Virus record (IMG/VR): IMGVR_UViG_2778261384_000002 | Source of the DNA: a virus | Taxonomy: Duplodnaviria > Heunggongvirae > Uroviricota > Caudoviricetes | Length of the DNA: 32,626 bases | Reading direction: 5' to 3' (one strand) | In this document: positions 3,229 to 31,069 of the stretch, one piece after another | How positions within the stretch are numbered: position 1 is the first letter of the stretch | Layout: each line of letters begins with the position of its first letter | Position numbers and translations under genes: made by a program | Notes under the pieces: generated by a model | The model's database searches: none | Seen by the model: the letters and a program-made list of their open reading frames with translations, nothing else | Told to the model about the DNA's origin: nothing

Positions 3229-4094
3229 AGGCAGCCCTTCAAAAACGACAGATCCGCGCCAGTGAACAGCACGACAGCAGTAAAAATAAAAGAATGGCCG
3301 GGCGGGCTACTGGATTCCAACGCAGACGCCAGTGACGCACCGCCACCGCTTCCCTTCCAGGACCAGACCTGCACGGCGGTTTCGTTCAGCTTGTCAAAGT
3401 CACCAGCCAGATCAGAAACAGCCTTTTCACGCAGCTTTACCAGTTCCGCCAATGTATCGACCGGCGCGCGGGTTTTATATGCGGCCAGCATCGCCATTTC
3501 TGACAACAGCAGGCGGCGCGATTCACGGTGATTTTTTTCGATCAGGTCGCCAGACTCCGGCCACGCCGGATAGGTCAGCGCGCCGGGGCGTTGCATTTTC
3601 TGGGATTCCTTGCCAGCGTGAGCGCGGGCGGTGTTCAGTGCCTGCGTAAATCCGGGGGCGGGCAAGGTGTCACAGACTTTTGTCAGCTTGCTAATGAAGT
3701 CCCCAATCTGACCAGCGCAAACCAGTAAACAAACGGCGTCACCGCCTGCGCCCATTCTCAGATCTGCACCATCGCGCAATTTTTCGGCCAGCCTTTTGAC
3801 GGCGTTCGGCGGGCTAAGATAAGTGCCGCTTTCTTCCTCCTTACCCGCGCCAAACGTCCAGTTATGAACGGCGATTTGCTGCCCGTTCGTTGTCAGTTTA
3901 TCCAGTTCGACGCGCAGATCGGCTACCTGATCCGCCTGCCCCGCCAATTCTGGCTGCGGCCACTGCGCCCGCGATTCCAGCGCGCGCAATGCGTTAATGC
4001 CAGGGGATGACAGCGACGACAACGCACCGTTTAACGTGTCATGCGGCGTTTTCACTTCATCCGGCAGTTTTAACTGTCCATTACTCCACGCCAT
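3225..4094 (-). CDS. Tail-operon hypothetical protein (about 290 aa)
   Basis: Track ORF 3225..4187 begins with TTG; the internal ATG at 4094 has a GGAG Shine-Dalgarno about 13 nt upstream. Hydrophobic C-terminus. No family recognised. Confidence 0.35.
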   Translation of the reverse strand: MAWSNGQLKLPDEVKTPHDTLNGALSSLSSPGINALRALESRAQWPQPELAGQADQVADLRVELDKLTTNGQQIAVHNWTFGAGKEEESGTYLSPPNAVKRLAEKLRDGADLRMGAGGDAVCLLVCAGQIGDFISKLTKVCDTLPAPGFTQALNTARAHAGKESQKMQRPGALTYPAWPESGDLIEKNHRESRRLLLSEMAMLAAYKTRAPVDTLAELVKLREKAVSDLAGDFDKLNETAVQVWSWKGSGGGASLASALESSSPPGHSFIFTAVVLFTGADLSFLKGCL

Positions 4095-4567
4095 GAATAA
4101 CCCCGCTCCCATTCGCTGGAAACCAGCGCGTGTAACTGGCCGGGCGAATAACGCCAGGCATCCCGTAACTGCATAAATTCGGCACAAAACTCGCTACAAA
4201 ACCACTTTTCAGGATTCCCACGGCAAAACAGCAAAAAGCCGATAACCCCGGCGATGTCGTATTTTTTCCCCGCGTACAGGCGGTAAAAACTGGCGATTTC
4301 CTGCGGGCTGGCGCTGATTTCGATCAAGTCCCATTTGTCAGAGGGTAAAGGCATTGTTTTAGCCCTGACCCCGCCATCACGGAACGATGACGAATAGCAG
4401 GTAAAATCCGTGCCGACGTCGTAGCACTGCGGCCCCACGGCGATTTCACAATGTGAATACGGACTGCGGGTAACAAGGCGTGTCACCCAGTCCGCCAGGC
4501 GGGCCAACCCTTTGTGTTCGCTGCGCCCACGATAAAACGCAATAAAAACCGCGTTCATGGTTGCCAC
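4070..4567 (-). CDS. Hypothetical protein with permuted papain-like (peptidase C92 / YiiX-like) motifs
   Basis: 165 aa; His-containing motif SPYSHCEIAV followed later by WFCSEFCAEF resembles the His-then-Cys order of C92/YiiX-type permuted papain-fold proteins; overlaps the tail fibre assembly gene stop by 13 nt. Confidence 0.35.
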   Translation of the reverse strand: MATMNAVFIAFYRGRSEHKGLARLADWVTRLVTRSPYSHCEIAVGPQCYDVGTDFTCYSSSFRDGGVRAKTMPLPSDKWDLIEISASPQEIASFYRLYAGKKYDIAGVIGFLLFCRGNPEKWFCSEFCAEFMQLRDAWRYSPGQLHALVSSEWERGYSWRGVMDS

Positions 4568-8976: not shown

Positions 8977-9304
8977 AAACAACCTCAACTGGATCAATCA
9001 GTCCGAATTCATAGGTTTCTGCCGTCACAATGACGCGGCCTGCCGCTTCCTCATACACGCGCACCGTTCCGGGGATTAGGCGGTTATCCGTTTCCACCAT
9101 CAGAATAATTTGCAGATAAATATCATTGCGCATGACAGCGGAACGCTGGCCGATAAGGTGCGTTGCCAGATTGCTTTCAATGATGCCGTGTTTAATGTCC
9201 TGACCAATGCTGACACGGTTGTCACAAAGCGTTGGTTCACGTCCGGTATTTAAAAGAAAATCGCCGTTAACAATTTTCAGATCGATATACAGTTTTTCAG
9301 TCAT
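8969..9304 (-). CDS. Small baseplate protein, gpW/gp25-like (DUF2590-type)
   Basis: 111 aa directly downstream of the tape measure gene and upstream of gpJ-like; size and position fit a gpW/gp25-type wedge protein. Tentative. Confidence 0.45.
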   Translation of the reverse strand: MTEKLYIDLKIVNGDFLLNTGREPTLCDNRVSIGQDIKHGIIESNLATHLIGQRSAVMRNDIYLQIILMVETDNRLIPGTVRVYEEAAGRVIVTAETYEFGLIDPVEVVYE

Positions 9305-11715
9305 CCCGCCGACATCTCCGCCATTTCCGCTATTTGCTGGGCGTCCTGCGCCTGCTGCACATACACATTGACGTTACCCACGCTGCGGCTGTTGTTTATA
9401 TTGGTCGTGCTTTTTGTTGTTTTACTGCTGACGCTGGCTACACCCGGATCAAGGACACCACCACGTAATACACCTGGGCTAGCAGGAGGCGGCGGCGGTG
9501 CAGTAGGGGAAACAGACGCAGGAACAACACCCGGAACCATCACAGACGCAGGCAATACAGCACCAGGAACCGGCGCAACAGCAGCGGATGACGTCGCAAC
9601 ACCAGGCGGCAGCATTACGCCCGGCGCTGGGGATGGGGCGGGCAATATTGCCCCCGGAACTATCGCAGCAGATGCTACGGGCGCAGGTACTCCAGCCGGG
9701 ACGGCGTCGGCCCCTTTTAATTCAATATCGACACCAGGCAATTTATTTAGCTGTTCAACAATACCGTTATATACGCCGTAAAATTGCTGGGCGATCGAAT
9801 CCCACAAACCGGAAAACATCTGCCCGACCGATTCAACGCCCGATTTAAACGAATCAGCAAACGAGAATTCAGAAAATGCAGTACATACGCTGTTCCAGCC
9901 CGCAACAACAGCGGGCCACGCCTGGATCAGCCAGTTCACAGCACTAATTAACAGATTGATTGGCATCAGGATCACGTCAAATGCAGCAGCAACGACAGAA
10001 CCGGCTGTACTGCCAGCATCAGAAAAAGTCGCCAGTTCATTTTCGGTATACTGAATTGGCGTCAGCAAATCACTAAACCAGCCGCACAGGCTTTTAATGC
10101 CATTCCATAACCAACTAACCACAGAACAAACCGCAGAAAATACCGGCCCCAACGCCGCCAGAACGTTCTGCAAAACCTGCGACTTTTGCGCCGCCTGCGC
10201 GAATCCAGTAACAAAACCGCTGAAAAATGCTTTAATTGGATTCCAGAATTTCACGACGGCAACCACGACAGCGCCGATCGCTAAAGCGATTAACGCAACC
10301 ACCCCCCAGATCGGGGCGGAAATGGCCGCAAGACTCCCACCAAAAGACAGCAAAGACATGCGCGCAGCCACCAGAGCGGTACGAAACAGCCTTGTGACAC
10401 CCGTTAACCGCAGGATGGACGCTGCACCACTGCTTAACGCTTTGAACATCGGCGTAATACCGGTGAAGATCCCCGCCAATTTAACGCCGGAATATGCCAT
10501 TTTAAGGCCACCGATCATCACGGAAAATGCTGCACCCGCCGCCGTTGCGCCAATAATTGACGCGGTAACAATTCCGATCCAGCGCGTAATATTCGGGAAT
10601 TTATTCAGCCAGGCGACAGCCGACTGGGCGACCTTTGTCATTTTTATCAGTAGCGGTTCCAAAACCGGCAACAACGCAGACCCCACAGCAATTTTTACCG
10701 CCGTAATACCTGCGGCGGCGCGCTCCCACGGATCGGCAACCGTGGCGGCGGCGCGTTTTACGTCGTCCAGCCCGTCGATCGCGTCAATCTCGCTGATACT
10801 GCGTTTCAGCCCGTCCGTATCACTGATCAGCAACTTGATCAGGGAAACCGCTTCATCACTGCCAAACGCTTTTTTCAGCAGGTCAGAATCCGCTACTTTG
10901 CTGATGTTCCCGAACCGCTTATGCAGCATGTCGAGAATTGCAGGCATTGACTTCATTTGCCCGGTGGCATCGGTAAACGACATTTTCAGCGTTTTCTGGG
11001 CGTTCCCTACCCCCGCCAGAAACGCTTTATATTTTGTACCGGCTTCACTGCCTGACATTGTTGACTGCAACTGACCCAGGATCGCGAATTGTTCCGCACT
11101 GCTGCGGCCTGCTGTCTGCGCAGCGGCCCCAAGTGACGTAAACGCCTGCGACATTGATTCACCGTCAGATTTAAACAGGTTGGCCGCATAGGCGGTTTGC
11201 CCGCCGATTTTCTCAGCCCATTTGATTTTCCCCATGCCGTCAGCAGTCTGTTTAAAGATGCCGTACATGGTCCCCATGTAGTTTGTGATCGTCTGCGTAT
11301 CGGCCTTTGTCGCCTTTGCAACAACCGCTGACGTGGTTGTGAATCCGGTCAATTCATCAGCAGACAATCCAGAAATTGCGGACTGAATATCGTAAGACGC
11401 GCTGACGATCTCCGCCGCGCTGCCGCCGTACTGCATACTGAATTGAAGCGCCGCGTTTTTAAGCTGCTTTAATCCCGTTTCGGTTACGTCCAGCGCCTTT
11501 ACAGAGTCCAGCGCGCGGCGCATTTCGATCGCCGGTTCCAGCCCGCCTTTTAATGCCTGGCCTGCGGCCCACATTGCCGCCGTTCCCATTGCAACCTGCT
11601 GCGCGCCGCTTTTTGCCGTCTGGCCCAGTGCGCTGACCTGCTGACGAATACCGCGCAGTGGGGCGCTTGCGCGGTCAATCAGAGAAATAATATAAGTCAG
11701 CGATTCACTAGCCAT
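9301..11715 (-). CDS. Tail tape measure protein
   Basis: 804 aa; alpha-helical N-terminal two thirds, multiple hydrophobic segments in the middle, Pro/Ala/Val-rich C-terminus; preceded by a frameshift-type chaperone gene. Confidence 0.85.
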   Translation of the reverse strand: MASESLTYIISLIDRASAPLRGIRQQVSALGQTAKSGAQQVAMGTAAMWAAGQALKGGLEPAIEMRRALDSVKALDVTETGLKQLKNAALQFSMQYGGSAAEIVSASYDIQSAISGLSADELTGFTTTSAVVAKATKADTQTITNYMGTMYGIFKQTADGMGKIKWAEKIGGQTAYAANLFKSDGESMSQAFTSLGAAAQTAGRSSAEQFAILGQLQSTMSGSEAGTKYKAFLAGVGNAQKTLKMSFTDATGQMKSMPAILDMLHKRFGNISKVADSDLLKKAFGSDEAVSLIKLLISDTDGLKRSISEIDAIDGLDDVKRAAATVADPWERAAAGITAVKIAVGSALLPVLEPLLIKMTKVAQSAVAWLNKFPNITRWIGIVTASIIGATAAGAAFSVMIGGLKMAYSGVKLAGIFTGITPMFKALSSGAASILRLTGVTRLFRTALVAARMSLLSFGGSLAAISAPIWGVVALIALAIGAVVVAVVKFWNPIKAFFSGFVTGFAQAAQKSQVLQNVLAALGPVFSAVCSVVSWLWNGIKSLCGWFSDLLTPIQYTENELATFSDAGSTAGSVVAAAFDVILMPINLLISAVNWLIQAWPAVVAGWNSVCTAFSEFSFADSFKSGVESVGQMFSGLWDSIAQQFYGVYNGIVEQLNKLPGVDIELKGADAVPAGVPAPVASAAIVPGAILPAPSPAPGVMLPPGVATSSAAVAPVPGAVLPASVMVPGVVPASVSPTAPPPPPASPGVLRGGVLDPGVASVSSKTTKSTTNINNSRSVGNVNVYVQQAQDAQQIAEMAEMSAG

Positions 11716-11718
11716 AAT

Positions 11719-11910
11719 TTATCCAAATAATTTAGCGACGCCATTCGCAACGCCAATACTGAAATTTTCCCAGTAATGGTTATCAAGCCAGACAGCGCGG
11801 GCTAATGTCTGCTCTGAATCATCACCATCAGGCAGATAATAACGGCGCAGGGTTAGCATTTGTTCCAGCCCGTTATTTTCAATAGCCCGCACGCGGGCAG
11901 TTATTTTTTT
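11719..11910 (-). other. Putative programmed -1 ribosomal frameshift site and extension (gpE' analog)
   Basis: Minus-strand heptamer A AAA AAA (plus 11904-11910) sits just before the chaperone stop; the -1 frame is open for 61 codons and ends in TAA 3 nt before the tape measure ATG. Confidence 0.55.
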
Positions 11911-12161
11911 ACAACAATATCCAGTTCCGGCGCGTACTGTTTATTAACAGCCGCCGCGATCTGAATGGCTGCACCTGGCTTTTTCAGGATGCCGTTTAAT
12001 GCGTCCTTACTTTCGCGGGAAACAATGGCGCGCACATATTCAACTGATGGCGTAACTTTGTTATCCATTGCCATTTCATTGATAAAAGAGTTATAGGCGA
12101 CTTCGTTCGGTTCGAAAACAACATCCACACCGGAAATAGTCAGCGTAATAGATTCATCCAT
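11901..12161 (-). CDS. Tail assembly chaperone (P2 gpE-like), short form
   Basis: 86 aa immediately upstream of the tape measure gene; ends ...VVKK* with a slippery A7 run at its last codons. Confidence 0.6.
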   Translation of the reverse strand: MDESITLTISGVDVVFEPNEVAYNSFINEMAMDNKVTPSVEYVRAIVSRESKDALNGILKKPGAAIQIAAAVNKQYAPELDIVVKK

Positions 12162-12210
12162 TTTTATTTATCCAGAATAAAGAAGTTAATATTTTAAAGC
12201 GTTTAAATGG

Positions 12211-12549
12211 TTATTTAACGCCGTTGTGTTCCAGACTGAAATGATTTCCGTCTGGTTTACTGAAACGACCGCCCCACGTCCCGCCGAGCGATTCCCAATA
12301 CTCCCCAAGCAGCAAGTAATCACGACTGTCTGTCTTATATTCGCCTTTGATAAACAGATTAAAATCGACGGCCAGTCGCTGCGTATGCAAACTGTTTTTA
12401 ATGCCGCTGCCTTTTTTGGCATTCAGTGCCGCCTGTTCCGGCGTGCGGTACGCTTCACCAAATGTCAGCCAAAAGCCATTCGCGTTGGCGTACTGGATTA
12501 ATAAAGCGATCATTGATGTAAATCGCTGCTGCTTTTCACTCAGTGTCAT
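12211..12549 (-). CDS. Endolysin, peptidase M15-type (L-alanyl-D-glutamate / VanY-like)
   Basis: Start at internal ATG (MTLSEKQQRF...) with GGGAG Shine-Dalgarno; motifs FGEAYRTPEQ..., HTQRLAVDF and GGRFSKPDGNHF are typical of M15 zinc peptidase endolysins. Confidence 0.7.
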   Translation of the reverse strand: MTLSEKQQRFTSMIALLIQYANANGFWLTFGEAYRTPEQAALNAKKGSGIKNSLHTQRLAVDFNLFIKGEYKTDSRDYLLLGEYWESLGGTWGGRFSKPDGNHFSLEHNGVK

Positions 12550-12838
12550 TTGTCTTGCTCCCGTTCCTGGACTGCGCACGATTACGCAGCCATAGTTCAA
12601 CCGCCTGATAGCCCGCAATACCGAAAGCAGCCCCCAGACCGTTTATTGCAACGGGGTGTAAATCAGGGAACTGAATCAATGCAACACCGGCCACCATCGA
12701 CACCGCAGCGCCTAAAATTACGCGTCCAATAATTAAACGCAGTGTGATCGGTTCAGCGGTATTCAACACCTTACCCAATGCAATTAATGCGCCAATCCCC
12801 GCCAAAGTGAGAACGCTTTTTTCATGCGGTGTTAACAT
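12536..12838 (-). CDS. Putative holin (three predicted transmembrane segments)
   Basis: 100 aa; three hydrophobic stretches and a charged C-terminus (RNRAQSRNGSKTNDTE); 3' end overlaps the endolysin start. Confidence 0.5.
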   Translation of the reverse strand: MLTPHEKSVLTLAGIGALIALGKVLNTAEPITLRLIIGRVILGAAVSMVAGVALIQFPDLHPVAINGLGAAFGIAGYQAVELWLRNRAQSRNGSKTNDTE

Positions 12839-12842
12839 ATAA

Positions 12843-13310
12843 TTACCCGATTAAATCGCGGGTATCTTCATCTGACAGATAAGGAATACCATTAATTTTG
12901 ATAAATTCAGGCGCAGTCACTTTATATTTAATTTTATAAACTGATTTTTCGCCGCCTGCGGTGTCCACGTCCAGCAAACTGTCAATTGCCAGCTTACATC
13001 CAAAAGCCTCGACTTTAATTTTTTCGCTGCCCGCCTTTGCATAAAATAAAATGTCTTCCGGTTCAATTCCGCGATAACTGCCAGCCGATGCCGCCGCATC
13101 ATGGATACGTAAAAAGTTTTTGGTATCCAGTTCCATGTCACCTTCGGCGCTGACGTCGCCGTCAACATAACCATCAGGAATGCCGCGCGTTTTCGCTACG
13201 TCAGAGTTATCAGTAATAGTCAGTGTAATTTTATTTACATGAATCGTGGTATTGAATAACGTAATATCAAACGCCATTCCCGAAATGCGTTTAGAACCCG
13301 ACATAATCAA
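12843..13310 (-). CDS. Tail tube protein (FII-like)
   Basis: About 155 aa directly downstream of the sheath gene, with overlapping stop and start; track start is TTG, an ATG lies two codons in. Confidence 0.55.
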   Translation of the reverse strand: MIMSGSKRISGMAFDITLFNTTIHVNKITLTITDNSDVAKTRGIPDGYVDGDVSAEGDMELDTKNFLRIHDAAASAGSYRGIEPEDILFYAKAGSEKIKVEAFGCKLAIDSLLDVDTAGGEKSVYKIKYKVTAPEFIKINGIPYLSDEDTRDLIG

Positions 13311-14446
13311 GCCTCATTCTGTACAGACAGATCAACCATAATATTTACGCCAATAACCAGCGGGCATTCAGTCGGGCGCGCCTGTACGTAAATATTTACA
13401 TGCGTTGAATCAATCCATGTAATAACAATATCACCCTCTTTTGGTGAATAGACTTCACCGGGGAATGACACGCCGTTAATAGTGGTACTTTTCGCCATCG
13501 TGCGCAGCGGTTTAGCAAACTGCATTTGATGATATTCAACGCTGGACGGCGTGGAATTTAACGAGCGGTTACCAATATTGCGAATAGCCAGTAAACGCAC
13601 CTGGCGCGCCACTTTATCGACAATGCGCAAAATACGGATCGATTGATAGTCGCCTCCTTTTGTCGCCAATAACGGGCCATCATTCCAGTAAATACCCTCA
13701 AAATCCGCATACGTGACCGGAACAGAATAACGCGCAGCGTCCAGCGCCTGCACAATATCCGCTGTTACCGTCTCTCCGTTTTTGTCTTTAGTTGCGTTGC
13801 CAACAGACACGAGCGATCCAGTTAAAACGCGCGCGGGAGTATCTGCAATTGTCACCAGCCGATTACATAAACGTCCAGCAATTACACCTGGCAAATTCTC
13901 ATAAAGACGGGGAACCAGCATAACGCCATCAGCAACTAACCCCGTTTGCCATTGCGTTAAAGCGGCGGAATATTGTTGCCATGTCATGTCACCGCCAACA
14001 GGATTTTTAACGGGTAAAATAAACCATGTCCAACGACCGTATGTCGCGATTAATTCCTGGCGGAGAGCGGCAGCTTCTTTGGCGCTTTTAGTTAGAGAAA
14101 AACCGGACTCTTCTTCATTCCAGTCAGCAAAATCCTCTAACAATACAACGCCCTCAAAACTTCCGTATTTTTGGCATTTTTTAACAGCATCCTGCCACTT
14201 TTCGTCAGAATCCATAAAATAAACCGATGCCGACCAATTTTGCCCCGCATTCATCATGGCGGCGCGAATATCGTCACCCGCTGAACTTGTAATTTTGTCT
14301 AAATCAGTTTGAGTATTTAGCGTGTAAAAACCTGGGGTGTAATTTTCAAGCGGCGCATAGCTGACGAACAATAAATGCCGCTCTATTTCATTTACAGTGC
14401 CCTGCGCCAGATCAATCTGATTAACCTGCACTTGTGGGTAAGTCAT
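13307..14446 (-). CDS. Tail sheath protein (FI-like, DUF2586-type)
   Basis: 379 aa; position upstream of the tube gene and size fit a contractile-tail sheath; ATG overlaps the upstream gene stop. Confidence 0.55.
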   Translation of the reverse strand: MTYPQVQVNQIDLAQGTVNEIERHLLFVSYAPLENYTPGFYTLNTQTDLDKITSSAGDDIRAAMMNAGQNWSASVYFMDSDEKWQDAVKKCQKYGSFEGVVLLEDFADWNEEESGFSLTKSAKEAAALRQELIATYGRWTWFILPVKNPVGGDMTWQQYSAALTQWQTGLVADGVMLVPRLYENLPGVIAGRLCNRLVTIADTPARVLTGSLVSVGNATKDKNGETVTADIVQALDAARYSVPVTYADFEGIYWNDGPLLATKGGDYQSIRILRIVDKVARQVRLLAIRNIGNRSLNSTPSSVEYHQMQFAKPLRTMAKSTTINGVSFPGEVYSPKEGDIVITWIDSTHVNIYVQARPTECPLVIGVNIMVDLSVQNEA

Positions 14447-15075
14447 GGTTTTCTCACCTTTTTTAATTCCTGCGCTAATATCCGCGCGTTATGTTTTGAA
14501 CGGGTATCAAGCCAGGAGCGCGGCGGCGCGGGGATGTCCCATTCTTTTTTCGCGGCTTCTTCTTTCAGAATGCGAATAATCAGCCCCGCCTGCCCCTGCT
14601 TAATGTTCTGCGTAATCCATTTAATTGACGGCGTTTTCTTCTTTTTGCCTTGCTTAACCGTGTAACCCAGCTGCCGCAACTTGACCGCCTGCCCCCTCGT
14701 GACCGGCGCATCATATGCAGGCTGACCGCGCTGGCGCTTGAGCTGCGCAGCCGTCACATGTTCCGGCTTACCGTAGTGATGGCGCGCTGCCATATCGCTA
14801 TGAACGGGGTTTTTCCAGTGCAACTTCACATCATCAGAAGTCGGCGTAATGCTCATTAGCGCAGGAATGCGACGCATCATTTTTTTACTGCCGCGCTGGC
14901 GCTTTTCCCATCCGCGCCCGTCCGGTGTCCGCTGCGCCCTGGCGTTCTGCTGCGCTTCCCGCTTAATCCGCCTGGCGGCATTCTGCAAAACCTGCCGCCG
15001 CTTTGCCGGTGGCAGTTCCAGCGCCGAAAGCCTGATTAGCGCCTCACGCTGGCCGCGCAGGTCGGTTCTAATCAC
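14443..15075 (-). CDS. Tail completion / virion morphogenesis protein, P2 gpS-like
   Basis: Segment RRIKREAQQNARAQRTPDGRGWEKRQRG resembles the gpS-family N-terminal motif as recalled. Track ORF begins with GTG at 15186 inside the upstream gene; GTG at 15075 has a GGGGTGG Shine-Dalgarno and is used here. Confidence 0.5.
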   Translation of the reverse strand: MIRTDLRGQREALIRLSALELPPAKRRQVLQNAARRIKREAQQNARAQRTPDGRGWEKRQRGSKKMMRRIPALMSITPTSDDVKLHWKNPVHSDMAARHHYGKPEHVTAAQLKRQRGQPAYDAPVTRGQAVKLRQLGYTVKQGKKKKTPSIKWITQNIKQGQAGLIIRILKEEAAKKEWDIPAPPRSWLDTRSKHNARILAQELKKVRKP

Positions 15076-22006: not shown

Positions 22007-22786
22007 TTATTCAGTTTCTTGTAAAAGATGCTCTTGTAAATTGCTTTCGGCAGCATCAATCCAAACAGACATACTCTCAACAAAATTAGAAATATCTTCC
22101 AACGCTTTGATTAAAATATCTTTACTGAGCGTGATTTTAGTACCTTCTTTATCAAAACCATTTCTATGTACTATGTCATGTCGTATCTTTGCAATTTTAC
22201 AAACCTCTGGTATTTCTTTCTTAACATTATCTGGAACTTTCTCTCCAAGCACAGCGCCGTAAACTTGGACAGTTTTTTCAATGTTATGGTACAAGTAGTC
22301 AGAAAACTTTCGAATAGCCACGGTTTTAACTATATCTGGATTTAAGTATACGTCTTTTAATGATAATTTTTCTTTTTTTAACTCTTCAACATCATCTATT
22401 GCATTTTCAAAAAAATGATTATTCCTAAGAATTAGACTTTTTATCATGTCACCTAGACATGTTTCCATCAGAGTTATTGAATAAGAGTACATCATTTTCA
22501 ATGCTGACTCGGAAGGCTTGGAAGTAATATCGTCTTTCAATTCTTCCATTTGTTCGCTGAATTGCCTGTACGCATAATTTTCTGACCCAAGCCGGAAAAC
22601 TTCATCCTGTAAAAATTCATCTTCCCAATAATCATCATCTGTAAATTGCCCAGATAGATATTGCGCCTTTAAGTCTTCCCACTCCTCATCACCCGGCTCG
22701 ACCCCCAGATCCGCATGTTCCCTTATCCACTCAATCATAGCTTCTTCAGCTTCACAAGCCTCAATGTATCGTTTTACTGAACCCAT
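22007..22786 (-). CDS. Accessory protein with HEPN-like R-x4-H motif (candidate abortive-infection RNase)
   Basis: 259 aa in a distinctly AT-rich segment; AGGGGA Shine-Dalgarno 6 nt upstream of ATG; acidic N-terminus; C-terminal KIRHDIVHRNG contains an R-x4-H motif of the kind found in HEPN nucleases. Confidence 0.45.
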   Translation of the reverse strand: MGSVKRYIEACEAEEAMIEWIREHADLGVEPGDEEWEDLKAQYLSGQFTDDDYWEDEFLQDEVFRLGSENYAYRQFSEQMEELKDDITSKPSESALKMMYSYSITLMETCLGDMIKSLILRNNHFFENAIDDVEELKKEKLSLKDVYLNPDIVKTVAIRKFSDYLYHNIEKTVQVYGAVLGEKVPDNVKKEIPEVCKIAKIRHDIVHRNGFDKEGTKITLSKDILIKALEDISNFVESMSVWIDAAESNLQEHLLQETE

Positions 22787-23010: not shown

Positions 23011-23292
23011 ATGAATAATGATTTATTAGACTGGCACAAAGCCGACATAATAGCCGCAGTCCACAAAAAAGGGACATCTTTAGCCGCACTTTCTCGCGGG
23101 GTAGGTTTAGGCAGTTCAACGCTTGCAAACGCTCTCACACGTTCTTGGCCGAAAGGTGAAAAGATTATTTCCACTGCGATCGGTGTCGAACCGTGGATCA
23201 TCTGGCCGTCACGCTACCACGACCCAATCACACATGAATTTATTGATCGTGGGCGAATGATGAAAGCACCGAAAAAACAAAACAGCCTTTAG
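23011..23292 (+). CDS. Ner/Nlp-family HTH DNA-binding regulator
   Basis: 93 aa; LDWHKADIIAAVHKKGTSLAALSR...STLANALTRSWPKGE...WIIWPSRYHDPITHEFIDR closely matches E. coli Nlp / phage Mu Ner as recalled. Confidence 0.65.
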   Translation: MNNDLLDWHKADIIAAVHKKGTSLAALSRGVGLGSSTLANALTRSWPKGEKIISTAIGVEPWIIWPSRYHDPITHEFIDRGRMMKAPKKQNSL

Positions 23293-26585: not shown

Positions 26586-27588
26586 AGAATTCACTCCCCG
26601 CGCTCGCACAAAAATCGACACTGTCACAAGCTCCACAGCCGCCATCCGGGCAACCCCAAACCGCGCGGCGCTGGGTGTCACAACTACACGGACGGCCCGT
26701 AATCAGGCGACCCCCGCAATATTCACAATGTGGGATATATCCGATCACTTCTTTTGCAGGCTCGCGTTTGCTGGTATTGGCACTGACTGACCGCTGAACA
26801 TTAATTTCCTGAAATGTGAACGGTGCGTAGATTTCTCGCGTGGCGGGCGTGTCGCTGTTGGAAATAACAACCTTTGCAGCACCTCGCGCGCTTATTTCTA
26901 ATAATCTCTGAACTAAGCGGCGGTGGTTGTCCTGGCTGAAGGTCTGCCCATAATATGTGGTAAAGTCTGCTGTTTCGCTGGCGGGTAAATATGGCGGATC
27001 GCAGTAAATAACGAGATTAGGCCCGAAGGGCAGCATTGATAATGTGTCATCAAAATTCATATTGATAAACACCGCATTTGTATCATTCGCCTTTTCTGCA
27101 AACTGCCGGATCTCCTGTTCGGGAAAATACGGCGCTGTCTTATGTCGACCAAACGGAACATTGTATTCCAGTTTATTGTTATAGCGACAAACGCCGTTAT
27201 AACCGTGCCGATTCAAATAGAGAAACCGCGCCGACTGCATTAACGACAATCGCTGCGATGGATATCGGCACCAATCTTTGCGGCAACTTGAATTTAATTC
27301 ATTAAATTCTTTGCGAATCTTTAAATAATATTCTTTTGAATTACCTTCTTTGAATAATTCCCGCGCAACGCAAATAAACAGATTAGTACTATGTTTCACA
27401 TGTTCATACGTGTTTATCAGATCTGAATTAATGTCAGCTAAAACATACTTATCATAACTTGTGTTTAAAAATACCGAACCGCCGCCAACAAACGGTTCCA
27501 TCAGACAATAACCCTTCGGCAAGTGCGGCAGCAGCTCAGGCAAAGCGCGAGTTTTTCCACCTGCCCACTTCAAAAACGGTCTGATCAT
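26572..27588 (-). CDS. Dam-family N6-adenine DNA methyltransferase with Cys-rich C-terminal extension
   Basis: 338 aa; motif I EPFVGGGSVFLN and motif IV DPPY; C-terminal about 60 aa carries 10 cysteines (CEYCGG...PCSCD...GCPDGGCGACDSVDFC). Confidence 0.8.
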   Translation of the reverse strand: MIRPFLKWAGGKTRALPELLPHLPKGYCLMEPFVGGGSVFLNTSYDKYVLADINSDLINTYEHVKHSTNLFICVARELFKEGNSKEYYLKIRKEFNELNSSCRKDWCRYPSQRLSLMQSARFLYLNRHGYNGVCRYNNKLEYNVPFGRHKTAPYFPEQEIRQFAEKANDTNAVFINMNFDDTLSMLPFGPNLVIYCDPPYLPASETADFTTYYGQTFSQDNHRRLVQRLLEISARGAAKVVISNSDTPATREIYAPFTFQEINVQRSVSANTSKREPAKEVIGYIPHCEYCGGRLITGRPCSCDTQRRAVWGCPDGGCGACDSVDFCASAGSEFYDED

Positions 27589-27806
27589 TTTTTATATTCC
27601 TTGTTATATCGTTCGTGAGTTAATAAAGTCCATTGCTGGCCGTCGTTTTTACTCAGTAACCGCCAACATCTGCCGATTGCAATTGACAGATAACCAGTCG
27701 CCAGCCGCCGCACTTTATCGCGGCGACCCTGTCGGAATTCACTAATTAAATTGTGTGCCTGATCAACAACGTAGGCGGGGCAATTATCATTTTTCCGGCG
27801 AATCAT
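27585..27806 (-). CDS. Small hypothetical early protein
   Basis: 73 aa, basic; overlaps both neighbours in the early operon; no motif recognised. Confidence 0.3.
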   Translation of the reverse strand: MIRRKNDNCPAYVVDQAHNLISEFRQGRRDKVRRLATGYLSIAIGRCWRLLSKNDGQQWTLLTHERYNKEYKK

Positions 27807-28669: not shown

Positions 28670-28903
28670 TTAAAAATAGCGTTTAATTAATTTAATCAGT
28701 GCGGCTATTACGCCCCTGTTTATTTTTTGCGTGTACACAAAAGGCTTGTTTCTGCCCTTAATAAACTGAACTCTTGACGGCTCCGGCTTAAAATAACGCC
28801 CGTCCGGTGTTTCAATCCAGCCGCGCGTCGATTTACAATGCGTGACCTGGCAACCGTTGCGTAATAGACTGGCGAATGAAGGAAATTGTTGTTCACTCAT
28901 AAC
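28670..28903 (-). CDS. Small hypothetical early protein
   Basis: Internal start MSEQQF... about 77 aa, overlapping the upstream small membrane ORF by 7 nt; basic C-terminus. Confidence 0.3.
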   Translation of the reverse strand, partial: VMSEQQFPSFASLLRNGCQVTHCKSTRGWIETPDGRYFKPEPSRVQFIKGRNKPFVYTQKINRGVIAALIKLIKRYF

Positions 28904-29118
28904 AGACACTCTAAAAGGGAGGCGACGCCAAATATTAGCAGCCAGCCACAAAATACATCTAAAAATAATGGTGCCGCCGCTTCAATATCCCTGTGTAATG
29001 CGTCAATAAAACGGATTCTGTTGCTACTGTTTTTTAATCTTCCGTAGGACCAAACAACAACGGCCCCCAAAATAAAAACCGCAACATTAAATATCCCCGA
29101 AAAAAAATATTGGCTCAT
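28897..29118 (-). CDS. Small membrane protein (two predicted TM helices)
   Basis: 73 aa with two hydrophobic segments (NVAVFILGAVVVW and FCGWLLIFGVASLL). Confidence 0.35.
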   Translation of the reverse strand: MSQYFFSGIFNVAVFILGAVVVWSYGRLKNSSNRIRFIDALHRDIEAAAPLFLDVFCGWLLIFGVASLLECLL

Positions 29119-29378: not shown

Positions 29379-29794
29379 TTAAACGCTGTCGTTTTTGTCA
29401 GGCTGGCTTCGGCGGTCATAAAAGCTCTGGCATACCATGCAACCATATTGATTTGTCTTAGTTCTCGACGATTCGGATCGACACGCGGAACTAATGGCAG
29501 ATAGCCGCGCTCCGCATCGCTTTGAACCTTACGCAAAGACTGTCCGAAGAATTCGGAAAATTCCTGCACTGTTAAAACCGGTTTAATGCCACTACTAAGG
29601 ATATGTTTCAGTGCGCGGTCAATTGCCATTAGTTCACGTTCAGAACGACTATCAGGGGCTCGCCAAGCGCGGCGCTGATGATTGCTTTGAGTCTGTTCGG
29701 GTAAAAACGCGCCTTGTGCCAGTTCAACAACCGGGTAGTAACCAGGATCAGTCTCCTGATGTGCGGGTAAAGCTCTGTTTTGCTCTGGTGTCAT
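29375..29794 (-). CDS. Cox/Apl-like HTH excisionase-regulator, first gene of early operon
   Basis: 139 aa; AGGA Shine-Dalgarno before ATG; segment LTVQEFSEFFGQSLRKVQSDAERGYLPLV parallels the P2 Cox HTH as recalled; divergent from the C repressor gene. Confidence 0.45.
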   Translation of the reverse strand: MTPEQNRALPAHQETDPGYYPVVELAQGAFLPEQTQSNHQRRAWRAPDSRSERELMAIDRALKHILSSGIKPVLTVQEFSEFFGQSLRKVQSDAERGYLPLVPRVDPNRRELRQINMVAWYARAFMTAEASLTKTTAFN

Positions 29795-30198: not shown

Positions 30199-30648
30199 AT
30201 GTCAAAAGATAATGATACATTTATACCCCCAATACGCCCACCTCGTAATTCCCGCTATGGAGAACCATCACCAGAACTTATGAAAAGGCTACAACAAGTT
30301 ACCCCTGAATTATTCGCTGAATTTTTGATGTCAAAAAACGCCGCTCAGTTCTGCATATCATGTGGATTCACTAAATTAACAATGTCCGAAAATGGAGTTT
30401 ATAGTGGCGCGAAGATTCCCGAGAACTATGATTCTTTATCGCAAATCGATCAGGAAAAATTCGTAGGTGATAATACTCTCTGGTATGTAACGCCCGTGTT
30501 TGTGAATACTCATACAAAAATAAGATTAGCCGATGTCGAATATAAAATTAATTGCCCAAACTGCGGGCATATCAGCATTTATCGCGCCCGCCCGGTCGTC
30601 GCATGGATAGAAGAGAATCGCAAGGAATGCAAAAATGAGTCAGACTAA
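30199..30648 (+). CDS. Hypothetical zinc-ribbon protein (accessory cassette gene 1)
   Basis: 149 aa; AGGA Shine-Dalgarno; two CxxC pairs (CISCG and CPNCG) about 68 residues apart; AT-rich codon usage unlike the phage core. Confidence 0.5.
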   Translation: MSKDNDTFIPPIRPPRNSRYGEPSPELMKRLQQVTPELFAEFLMSKNAAQFCISCGFTKLTMSENGVYSGAKIPENYDSLSQIDQEKFVGDNTLWYVTPVFVNTHTKIRLADVEYKINCPNCGHISIYRARPVVAWIEENRKECKNESD

Positions 30649-31069
30649 GGATAATGTTCATCATATAAGAGAACGTCAGGTACCCATAAATAATGAGTCC
30701 ACAAACAGTAGTGACGACGGAGGCAACGGCATGAACAGCCTAATAAAACGCGTTGAAAAACTTGAAGACAATACCGGTGTAATTGTTAAAGAACTTACCC
30801 ATCTCAATGCGCGCGCTGATGACTTCGCCTCAAAGGGAGATCTGCGTGAACTCAAGGCGCAGATAACTGGGGATATGAAAGAACTCCGTGCGCAGATGAC
30901 CGGAGATATGCGCGAGCTTAAGGCACAGATTAGCGGCGAACTCAAAGAGTCCAGGTCAGCAGCCAGGGAAGATCTTGCAAAGGGATTACATAAGCAAATG
31001 ATATGGCTATGCTCTGCCCTTTTCGCTACAGCAGGAGTCATAATCGCTTTGGCAAAAGGTCTGCTCTAA
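30635..31069 (+). CDS. Coiled-coil protein with C-terminal transmembrane anchor (accessory cassette gene 2)
   Basis: 144 aa; start overlaps gene 1 by 14 nt with AAGGAA Shine-Dalgarno; three and a half 11-residue repeats (GDLRELKAQIT / GDMKELRAQMT / GDMRELKAQIS); hydrophobic C-terminus MIWLCSALFATAGVIIALA. Confidence 0.5.
   Translation: MSQTKDNVHHIRERQVPINNESTNSSDDGGNGMNSLIKRVEKLEDNTGVIVKELTHLNARADDFASKGDLRELKAQITGDMKELRAQMTGDMRELKAQISGELKESRSAAREDLAKGLHKQMIWLCSALFATAGVIIALAKGLL

Follow-up and report, generated by a model that had tools for sequence, protein, structure and literature searches.

The stretch of DNA analysed here (IMG/VR record IMGVR_UViG_2778261384_000002, 32,626 nucleotides; this whole stretch is referred to below as the window) matches, at 100% identity, a prophage that E. 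coli LZSFT34 carries between yeaE and mipA. At 12211-12838 it carries a two-gene lysis cassette, a holin followed by an M15-type endolysin, in the slot between the genes for the tail tube and the tail assembly chaperone. In related phages that same slot also holds an inner membrane (i-) spanin and outer membrane (o-) spanin gene pair, of which there is no trace here. As read from gene comparison, a small prophage clade of E. coli and E. albertii had an ancestor that lost the ~490-bp spanin module, with a spacer of 29-49 bp left in its place. In our judgment it is probable that the cassette is a standard one of the HP1 group in its standard slot, that its spanins have been lost clade-wide and that the outer membrane is breached without a dedicated factor.

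The order tail tube-holin-endolysin-Rz-like spanin-chaperone is shared by Haemophilus phage HP1, Escherichia phage ESSI2_ev040, Yersinia phage vB_YenM_324 (Yersinia 324) and Salmonella phage SI7; for HP1, hol and lys are known to be placed between the tube gene orf24 and orf25 and to be transcribed late (PMC7312051). A survey of 140 related loci, fetched by chaperone alignment, yielded 136 with both the tube and the chaperone gene. An Rz-like i-spanin homologue is present in the tube-chaperone slot of 116 of these 136, most of the 116 with a detectable overlapping lipoprotein o-spanin, four hold holin and endolysin only, and nine Xenorhabdus loci have no cassette in the slot. In nearly all surveyed loci the gap between the tube and chaperone genes measures ~1120-1160 bp and accommodates holin, endolysin and Rz homologue. 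The remaining loci have other cassettes (the slot is modular: Aeromonas-type loci contain a TraR-like gene, another holin and another lysin), and the ones that were inspected, Aeromonas-type loci and L031, also hold spanins. Judged by gene order, the tube-chaperone slot is the standard location of the lysis cassette in HP1-group Peduoviridae. A preliminary description of this DNA had drawn attention to lysis genes inside a tail operon as a departure from P2. Since the tail and lysis module of the prophage is HP1-like and not P2-like, P2 is the wrong reference for the position of the cassette, and what had been taken for an oddity is the family norm, the layout being the same in HP1, the ESSI-2-like phages, SI7 and Yersinia 324. 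(In the nine Xenorhabdus loci, L039, L040, L044, L047, L050-L053 and L063, the tube and chaperone genes are separated by only 127-225 bp, which hold no lysis genes; such loci may derive from phages in the manner of tailocins, or may belong to elements that have their lysis genes in another place.)

The spanins of the relatives have the expected parts. Each annotated Rz-like spanin has an N-terminal transmembrane segment, and the lipoprotein open reading frames (ORFs) in the overlapping frame have recognizable lipoboxes (LSAC in ev040, MSGC in Yersinia 324, TSGC in SI7 and LLAC in HP1). Two-component spanins are listed for HP1, HP2, ESSI-2, K139 and PhiO18P (Kongari 2018, PMC6139136). On these sequence features, the relatives' spanins are genuine two-component pairs. 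One locus, L149, was considered as an intermediate of spanin decay on account of its 143-aa 'endolysin' and was rejected: it has an intact i-spanin in another frame and a LysC-like o-spanin.

The spanin-free junction is found in the window, in two identical IMG/VR contigs (L067 and L068) and in at least five diverged relatives, which are the prophage of E. coli strain N1420 (N1420 for short) and L069 (both at ~81% nucleotide identity), the Logan assemblies L150/L152 and L151/L153, and E. albertii L156. A homologous 49-nt spacer is present in the window, L152 and L153; the N1420 spacer is shorter, and in L156 the gap between the endolysin and chaperone genes is 29 nt by gene coordinates. In a neighbour-joining tree of the tube and chaperone proteins, a single deep branch unites the window with N1420 and L069. 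Because the i-/o-spanin pair of the relatives is located in precisely this slot, its absence reads as a clade-level deletion and not as a cassette that never had spanins; because the HP1, SI7, ESSI2, Aeromonas-type and Buttiauxella-type cassettes are all spanin-bearing in the slot, loss is more parsimonious than repeated gain. The existence of two complete prophages, the window element and N1420, at different attachment (att) sites argues for an old deletion in prophages that otherwise look intact. There is one further case: the locus L025 has a spanin-less holin-endolysin-chaperone junction with an unrelated spacer and is nested among spanin-bearing Xenorhabdus and Brenneria lineages, which argues, at the level of sequence, that it is a second, independent spanin loss. 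L025 is a 2.8-kb contig binned in a 'Bacillales' metagenome-assembled genome; it clusters with Xenorhabdus/Brenneria phages and looks mis-binned.

All genes around the cassette are on the minus strand. From upstream to downstream, this part of the late tail operon reads as follows.

13307..14446, minus strand: tail sheath gene, DUF2586 (PF10758, E 3e-104), upstream in the same operon
12843..13310, minus strand: tail tube gene, HP1 Orf24 family (PF10772, E 7e-61), the upstream border of the lysis slot
12536..12838, minus strand: holin gene, 100 aa (PF04550 Phage_holin_3_2, E 7.8e-40; PHROG 175 'holin', E 1.7e-38)
12536..12549, minus strand: overlap of holin end and endolysin start, 14 nt, AATGACACTGAGTGA (from the sequence; same coordinates in the Prokaryotic Genome Annotation Pipeline, PGAP)
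12211..12549, minus strand: endolysin gene, 112 aa (PF13539 Peptidase_M15_4, 39.2 bits against a cut-off of 25; PHROG endolysin families 1768, 465 and 2649)
12162..12210, minus strand: AT-rich spacer, 49 bp, from endolysin stop to chaperone ATG (from the sequence)
11901..12161, minus strand: tail assembly chaperone gene (PF10963, E 1e-33), the downstream border of the lysis slot
11719..11892, minus strand: DUF6890 ORF, the -1 frame extension of the chaperone (PF21830, E 9e-21)
9301..11715, minus strand: tape measure gene (PF10145), continuing the late tail operon

Pfam, PHROG and the sequence itself agree with the overlapping holin and M15-type endolysin that had been described at this place, in coordinates as well as in gene calls. 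The holin ATG lies 4 nt past the stop codon of the tube gene (which PGAP labels 'phage protein' in the identical LZSFT34 prophage), and the 14-nt overlap makes translational coupling of holin and endolysin probable. A slippery A_AAA_AAA run (11904-11910) comes just ahead of the stop codon of the chaperone gene, with a GCCCGC..GCGGGC hairpin (11885-11898) 5-6 nt downstream of the run. Together (11885-11910) they have the form of a programmed -1 frameshift signal, the -1 frame running into the ORF that PGAP names as a separate 'DUF6890 family protein'.

Spanin genes can be overlooked: the survey of Kongari 2018 (PMC6139136) brought to light 196 unannotated o-spanins, as well as i- and o-spanin genes lying ~1 kb apart, and of 114 loci known to be positive, 31 were missed by our own lipobox heuristic in its strict form. 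That this prophage has spanins which escape recognition, because their lipobox or topology is unusual or because they lie far away, is nevertheless very improbable. A hidden Markov model (HMM) of the i-spanin, built from 93 relatives, finds nothing better than E 0.15 in the six-frame translation of the window, as against 1e-54 in the ESSI2_ev040 control; for the o-spanin HMM (89 relatives) the corresponding values are 6 and 1e-46. Applied to five clade loci with their flanks (the full LZSFT34 locus, N1420 and three more), the two models give nothing better than E 0.003, and that is a 12-bit antisense match. Searching the 32.6-kb window by tblastn with the relatives' spanins gave no credible match, and a lenient lipobox scan of all starts in its six frames returned only four tiny or implausible ORFs together with the ORF embedded in the endolysin gene. 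No ORF of the window combines an N-terminal lipobox with a C-terminal transmembrane segment, as a unimolecular spanin should. The earlier statement that no Rz/Rz1 pair is visible nearby can accordingly be extended from the neighbourhood of the cassette, where there is only the 49-bp spacer, to the whole prophage, in which neither a unimolecular spanin nor a spanin-bearing cassette elsewhere was found.

Four candidates deserve mention as having been tried and set aside. The ORF embedded in the endolysin gene (12186-12422), already described as lacking a lipobox, does lack one; its leader is too short for an o-spanin, it is interrupted by stop codons in N1420 (81% identical) and in L069, and it is judged to be spurious. 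The tblastn match of ESSI2 Rz at 29504-29695 (E 0.05) is ascribed to chance: it lies inside a Cox-like excisionase/repressor gene (PHROG 575) that is absent from N1420. A 144-aa coiled-coil protein with a C-terminal transmembrane segment (30635-31069) and a 73-aa protein with two transmembrane segments (28897-29118), considered as odd spanins, have neither signal sequence nor lipobox, lie in the lysogeny/early region and are absent from N1420.

The two genes that remain in the slot match known families of lysis genes. The PF04550 match of the holin scores 135.6 bits against a cut-off of 25 and covers 83 of the 86 profile positions; its hydropathy profile has strong hydrophobic segments at residues ~8-25 and 33-57, and a charged C-terminal tail ends the protein after the hydrophobic segments. 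In the endolysin, the zinc ligands H55-x6-D62 and H103 are invariant among 25 homologues. Searching PDB chains with its sequence gave no match, so that a search by fold was called for. With an AlphaFold2 (AF2) model of the endolysin (predicted local distance difference test score, pLDDT, 76.5) as query, the best PDB folds in Foldseek are ChiX (5opz), LysECD7 (8q2g), the catalytic domain of Ply500 (2vo9), LysB4 (6akv) and VanY (5hnm), at probabilities of 0.97-1.0 and template-modelling (TM) scores of 0.51-0.56, with modest E-values (2e-3 and weaker). No signal or signal-arrest-release (SAR) segment is found in the endolysin, all 15-residue hydropathy windows being below transmembrane level. An uncharged stretch at residues 10-31, with a mean Kyte-Doolittle (KD) value of 0.93, corresponds in the AF2 model to a helix belonging to the catalytic fold; a SAR endolysin/pinholin arrangement of the HP1 type was rejected, as the endolysin N-terminus is not hydrophobic enough to span a membrane. 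On sequence and model, the endolysin is a small cytoplasmic zinc peptidase of the LAS/M15 type. Having neither signal nor SAR sequence, it should need the holin for access to the wall. It would cleave the peptide stems of peptidoglycan, and the nearest folds hint at which bond (L-Ala-D-Glu or D-Ala-D-Ala) might be cut.

Lysis by this prophage would probably proceed as follows. The 100-aa holin would accumulate in the inner membrane late in infection and open holes at a set time, releasing the 112-aa zinc peptidase from the cytoplasm; the peptidase, whose closest folds are L-Ala-D-Glu endopeptidases, would cut the peptide stems of the wall. The third step, in which spanins fuse or rupture the outer membrane, would have no gene here, and virion release would need no protein beyond holin and endolysin: with the wall gone, the outer membrane would give way mechanically. 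Lysis of this kind would be less robust and sensitive to cations, though evidently tolerated. Spanin-null mutants of phage lambda arrest as spheres when there is no shaking or shear, or when divalent cations (Mg) stabilize the outer membrane. By that analogy, failure of the outer membrane without a dedicated protein is most likely what happens here, and the spanin-less clade should pay a cost.

A rival account is that the prophage is decaying or domesticated, with spanin loss as one step in the erosion of lytic function, or that its release relies on co-resident prophages to supply spanins in trans. Lambdoid Rz/Rz1 genes are common in E. coli genomes, the phage collection contains no cultured phage of the clade, and in E. 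albertii L156 the tape measure gene is called in two pieces. The condition and the distribution of these elements make this account improbable nonetheless. The LZSFT34 prophage has a capsid, terminase, portal and Ogr of P2 type, an HP1-type tail, replication genes and an integrase, and the head, tail, replication and integration genes are all intact in the window element and in N1420. The window element is flanked at both ends by a 20-bp direct repeat between yeaE and mipA; N1420, at tRNA-Leu, is flanked by repeats of 86 bp and differs from the window element in its integrase and its immunity module. There are thus intact att repeats at two different sites. The spanin deletion is precise and conserved, and the neighbouring genes are still under constraint. 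Over the 2.8 kb that were compared (window 11700-14500), six complete E. coli genomes show 100% identity although their hosts (dog, human, frigatebird and chicken) are unrelated, which argues for recent horizontal spread; over the same 2.8 kb one further E. coli genome is 98.9% identical and the N1420 relative 81%. A type I-E CRISPR (clustered regularly interspaced short palindromic repeats) spacer, present for example in E. coli strain 2014C-3097, matches window 12024-12055, in the chaperone gene, at 32 of 32 nt, and the CTT next to it (to 12058) reads, on the opposite strand, as an AAG protospacer-adjacent motif (PAM). Matches to 12024-12058 under features annotated as CRISPR occur in about 89 of 5,426 complete E. 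coli genomes. A perfect spacer with the correct PAM implies that members of the clade do infect cells.

The same observations open the way to a different explanation, that the clade has an unrecognised outer membrane disruptor other than a spanin that makes spanins dispensable. This could be a cationic peptide resembling a disruptin, the product of a small nested ORF, or an enzyme that escapes by way of the holin lesion. There are precedents: phage phiKT, which has no spanin, uses the 56-aa cationic peptide gp28, and phage LambdaSo turned out to need an unexpected 65-aa membrane protein and to have deeply nested spanin ORFs. Without spanins, the clade has grown old and diverse and is apparently still mobile; its persistence, its spread between hosts and its targeting by CRISPR speak for this explanation, which we regard as unlikely but worth keeping in mind. 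That such a factor would be neither a spanin nor a disruptin of the phiKT type is an equally tentative proposition.

No disruptin-like protein or other spanin substitute was identified in the prophage. There is little room for one in or next to the cassette, where 49 bp are free and no small cationic amphipathic ORF is available. Among alternative-frame ORFs kept open in the clade, the late region has six short ones, none of them hydrophobic or convincing, and their openness is explained by high nucleotide identity. Membrane proteins of the lysogeny/early region, including the 144-aa and 73-aa proteins referred to above, are not conserved in N1420. Common to the window and N1420 and absent from ESSI2_ev040 are a pair of genes for a YidD-like and a DUF4177 protein, a 162-aa protein of the tail-fibre module, DUF4376, a ParE-like protein, Fil and several small early proteins; of these, the YidD-like/DUF4177 pair and the small early proteins count in favour of a hidden factor. 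The YidD-like/DUF4177 pair was set aside as a substitute because it is on the opposite strand at the end of the prophage, and it was treated as a lysogenic-conversion moron. The DUF6890 ORF (11719-11892) is not a lysis gene either, being the -1 frameshift extension of the chaperone and conserved in spanin-bearing relatives (61% in ev040). The YiiX-like cysteine hydrolase encoded at 4070-4558 was considered as an outer membrane or cell wall factor. Its fold was confirmed, but it has no signal peptide and is a weak lead: in the unrelated P2-type phage L155, too, a YiiX-like gene comes after the gene for tail-fibre assembly, which shows it to travel with the fibre module and not with spanin loss.

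Two further regions of the prophage are of interest in their own right. The YidD-like 'membrane protein insertion efficiency factor' (PF01809) and its DUF4177 partner are encoded at 1-452 on the plus strand, opposite to the tail genes; the pair is 96-99% identical in N1420, which is otherwise 81% identical, and is also present in E. albertii. Between the late and the replication genes there is cargo (22007-22786, minus strand; 23011-23292, plus strand; 27585-27806, minus strand), comprising a RiboL-PSP-type HEPN protein and an SfsB-like regulator, neither of which N1420 has, as well as a protein with a ParE-like toxin domain that adjoins the Dam methylase.

Unaided failure of the outer membrane, following clade-wide loss of spanins from a standard cassette, is the reading that we prefer, and several points weigh against it. 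It leans on the analogy with lambda spanin mutants, by which the long survival of the clade is somewhat surprising, leaving room for an unseen factor. Lysis and particle production by the prophage are predicted from its genes alone, and the best nucleotide identity between the clade and any phage in the collection is ~71%. The preliminary description had the holin with three transmembrane segments. Two of these are well supported by hydropathy; the third (residues 60-84) is weak and glycine-rich, with a mean KD value of 1.05, and is not established, so that three segments are best called plausible. Scans for sigma-70 promoters and for terminators came out at or below chance, and a search for the P2 late-promoter motif TGT-N12-ACA came out at chance level; both are uninformative on transcription units. 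That the lysis genes are probably co-transcribed with the late tail genes is therefore inferred from the 4-nt and 49-nt gene spacings alone. The tree is a quick neighbour-joining tree of two short proteins with midpoint rooting, and the clade members that it includes are the window, N1420 and L069.

What this case has to offer concerns the outer membrane. That the cassette lies among tail genes is usual in the HP1 group and adds nothing to the case. Phage lysis in Gram-negative hosts is seen as requiring spanins for its third step, and the phiKT disruptin is the only alternative that has been worked out. The clade amounts to a natural spanin knock-out with matched controls: it is a temperate E. 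coli clade whose closest relatives bear spanins, it has a 29-49 bp scar at the site of the loss, and there is a second loss to set beside it. If its lysis is normal, a new outer membrane disruption factor should be findable within a genome of 33 kb; impaired lysis would make the clade a measure of the spanin function that life in the gut really demands. The interest is modest, that of a tractable E. coli case for asking how, and whether, the outer membrane is breached without spanins.

This kind of cassette, its place in the genome and spanin-less phages as a category are already known, and what is new is limited. The closest comparison is with the cassettes of the ESSI-2-like phages (ESSI2_ev040, Cronobacter phage ESSI-2, vB_YenM_324 and SI7), which have the same slot, a PF04550 holin, a small M15 endolysin and the holin/endolysin overlap. 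The holin is 59-65% identical to those of ESSI2_ev040 and Yersinia 324 (65% for ESSI2_ev040), and the endolysin 76-88% (88% for ESSI2_ev040). The ESSI-2-like phages differ in having an i-spanin (PHROG 1152) and an overlapping lipoprotein o-spanin after the endolysin, where there is here the 49-bp spacer. In Haemophilus phage HP1 the cassette is likewise placed between the orf24 tube gene and the chaperone and tape measure genes and transcribed late, but it consists of a pinholin and a SAR muramidase that are unrelated in sequence to the holin and M15 peptidase described here (PMC7312051), and HP1 keeps an Rz-like spanin with an embedded lipobox ORF.

P2 belongs to the same virus family, its capsid, terminase and Ogr genes have counterparts of P2 type in the window, and the holin-then-endolysin logic is the same. 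Its lysis genes are Y (holin), K (endolysin), lysA and the spanin genes lysB/lysC, in a cassette that follows the head genes L and X; the prophage differs in its HP1-type slot and in having no counterpart of LysB/LysC. A holin-like protein and a small M15 peptidase are also paired in Type 10 secretion systems, such as that of Serratia with the ChiW holin and the L-Ala-D-Glu endopeptidase ChiX, the best fold match of the endolysin. The cassette described here differs in lying among the late tail genes of a complete, att-flanked prophage and in having no adjoining gene for a secreted cargo, and nothing suggests that it serves non-lytic secretion.

The last comparison is with other phages that make do without spanins. 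These accounted for 91 of 677 genomes in one survey (PMC6139136), and ~13-15% of phages of Gram-negative hosts have no identifiable spanin (PMC6139136; bioRxiv 515445); the disruptin gp28 of phiKT is one known alternative mechanism for the outer membrane (bioRxiv 515445). Like phiKT and the other spanin-less phages, the prophage has a holin and an endolysin and no identifiable spanin. Unlike phiKT, its nearest relatives carry spanins, so that the loss can be dated and compared. The new element is a dated, clade-level loss of spanins, together with one independent loss, in a family with a fixed spanin slot and in a tractable host.

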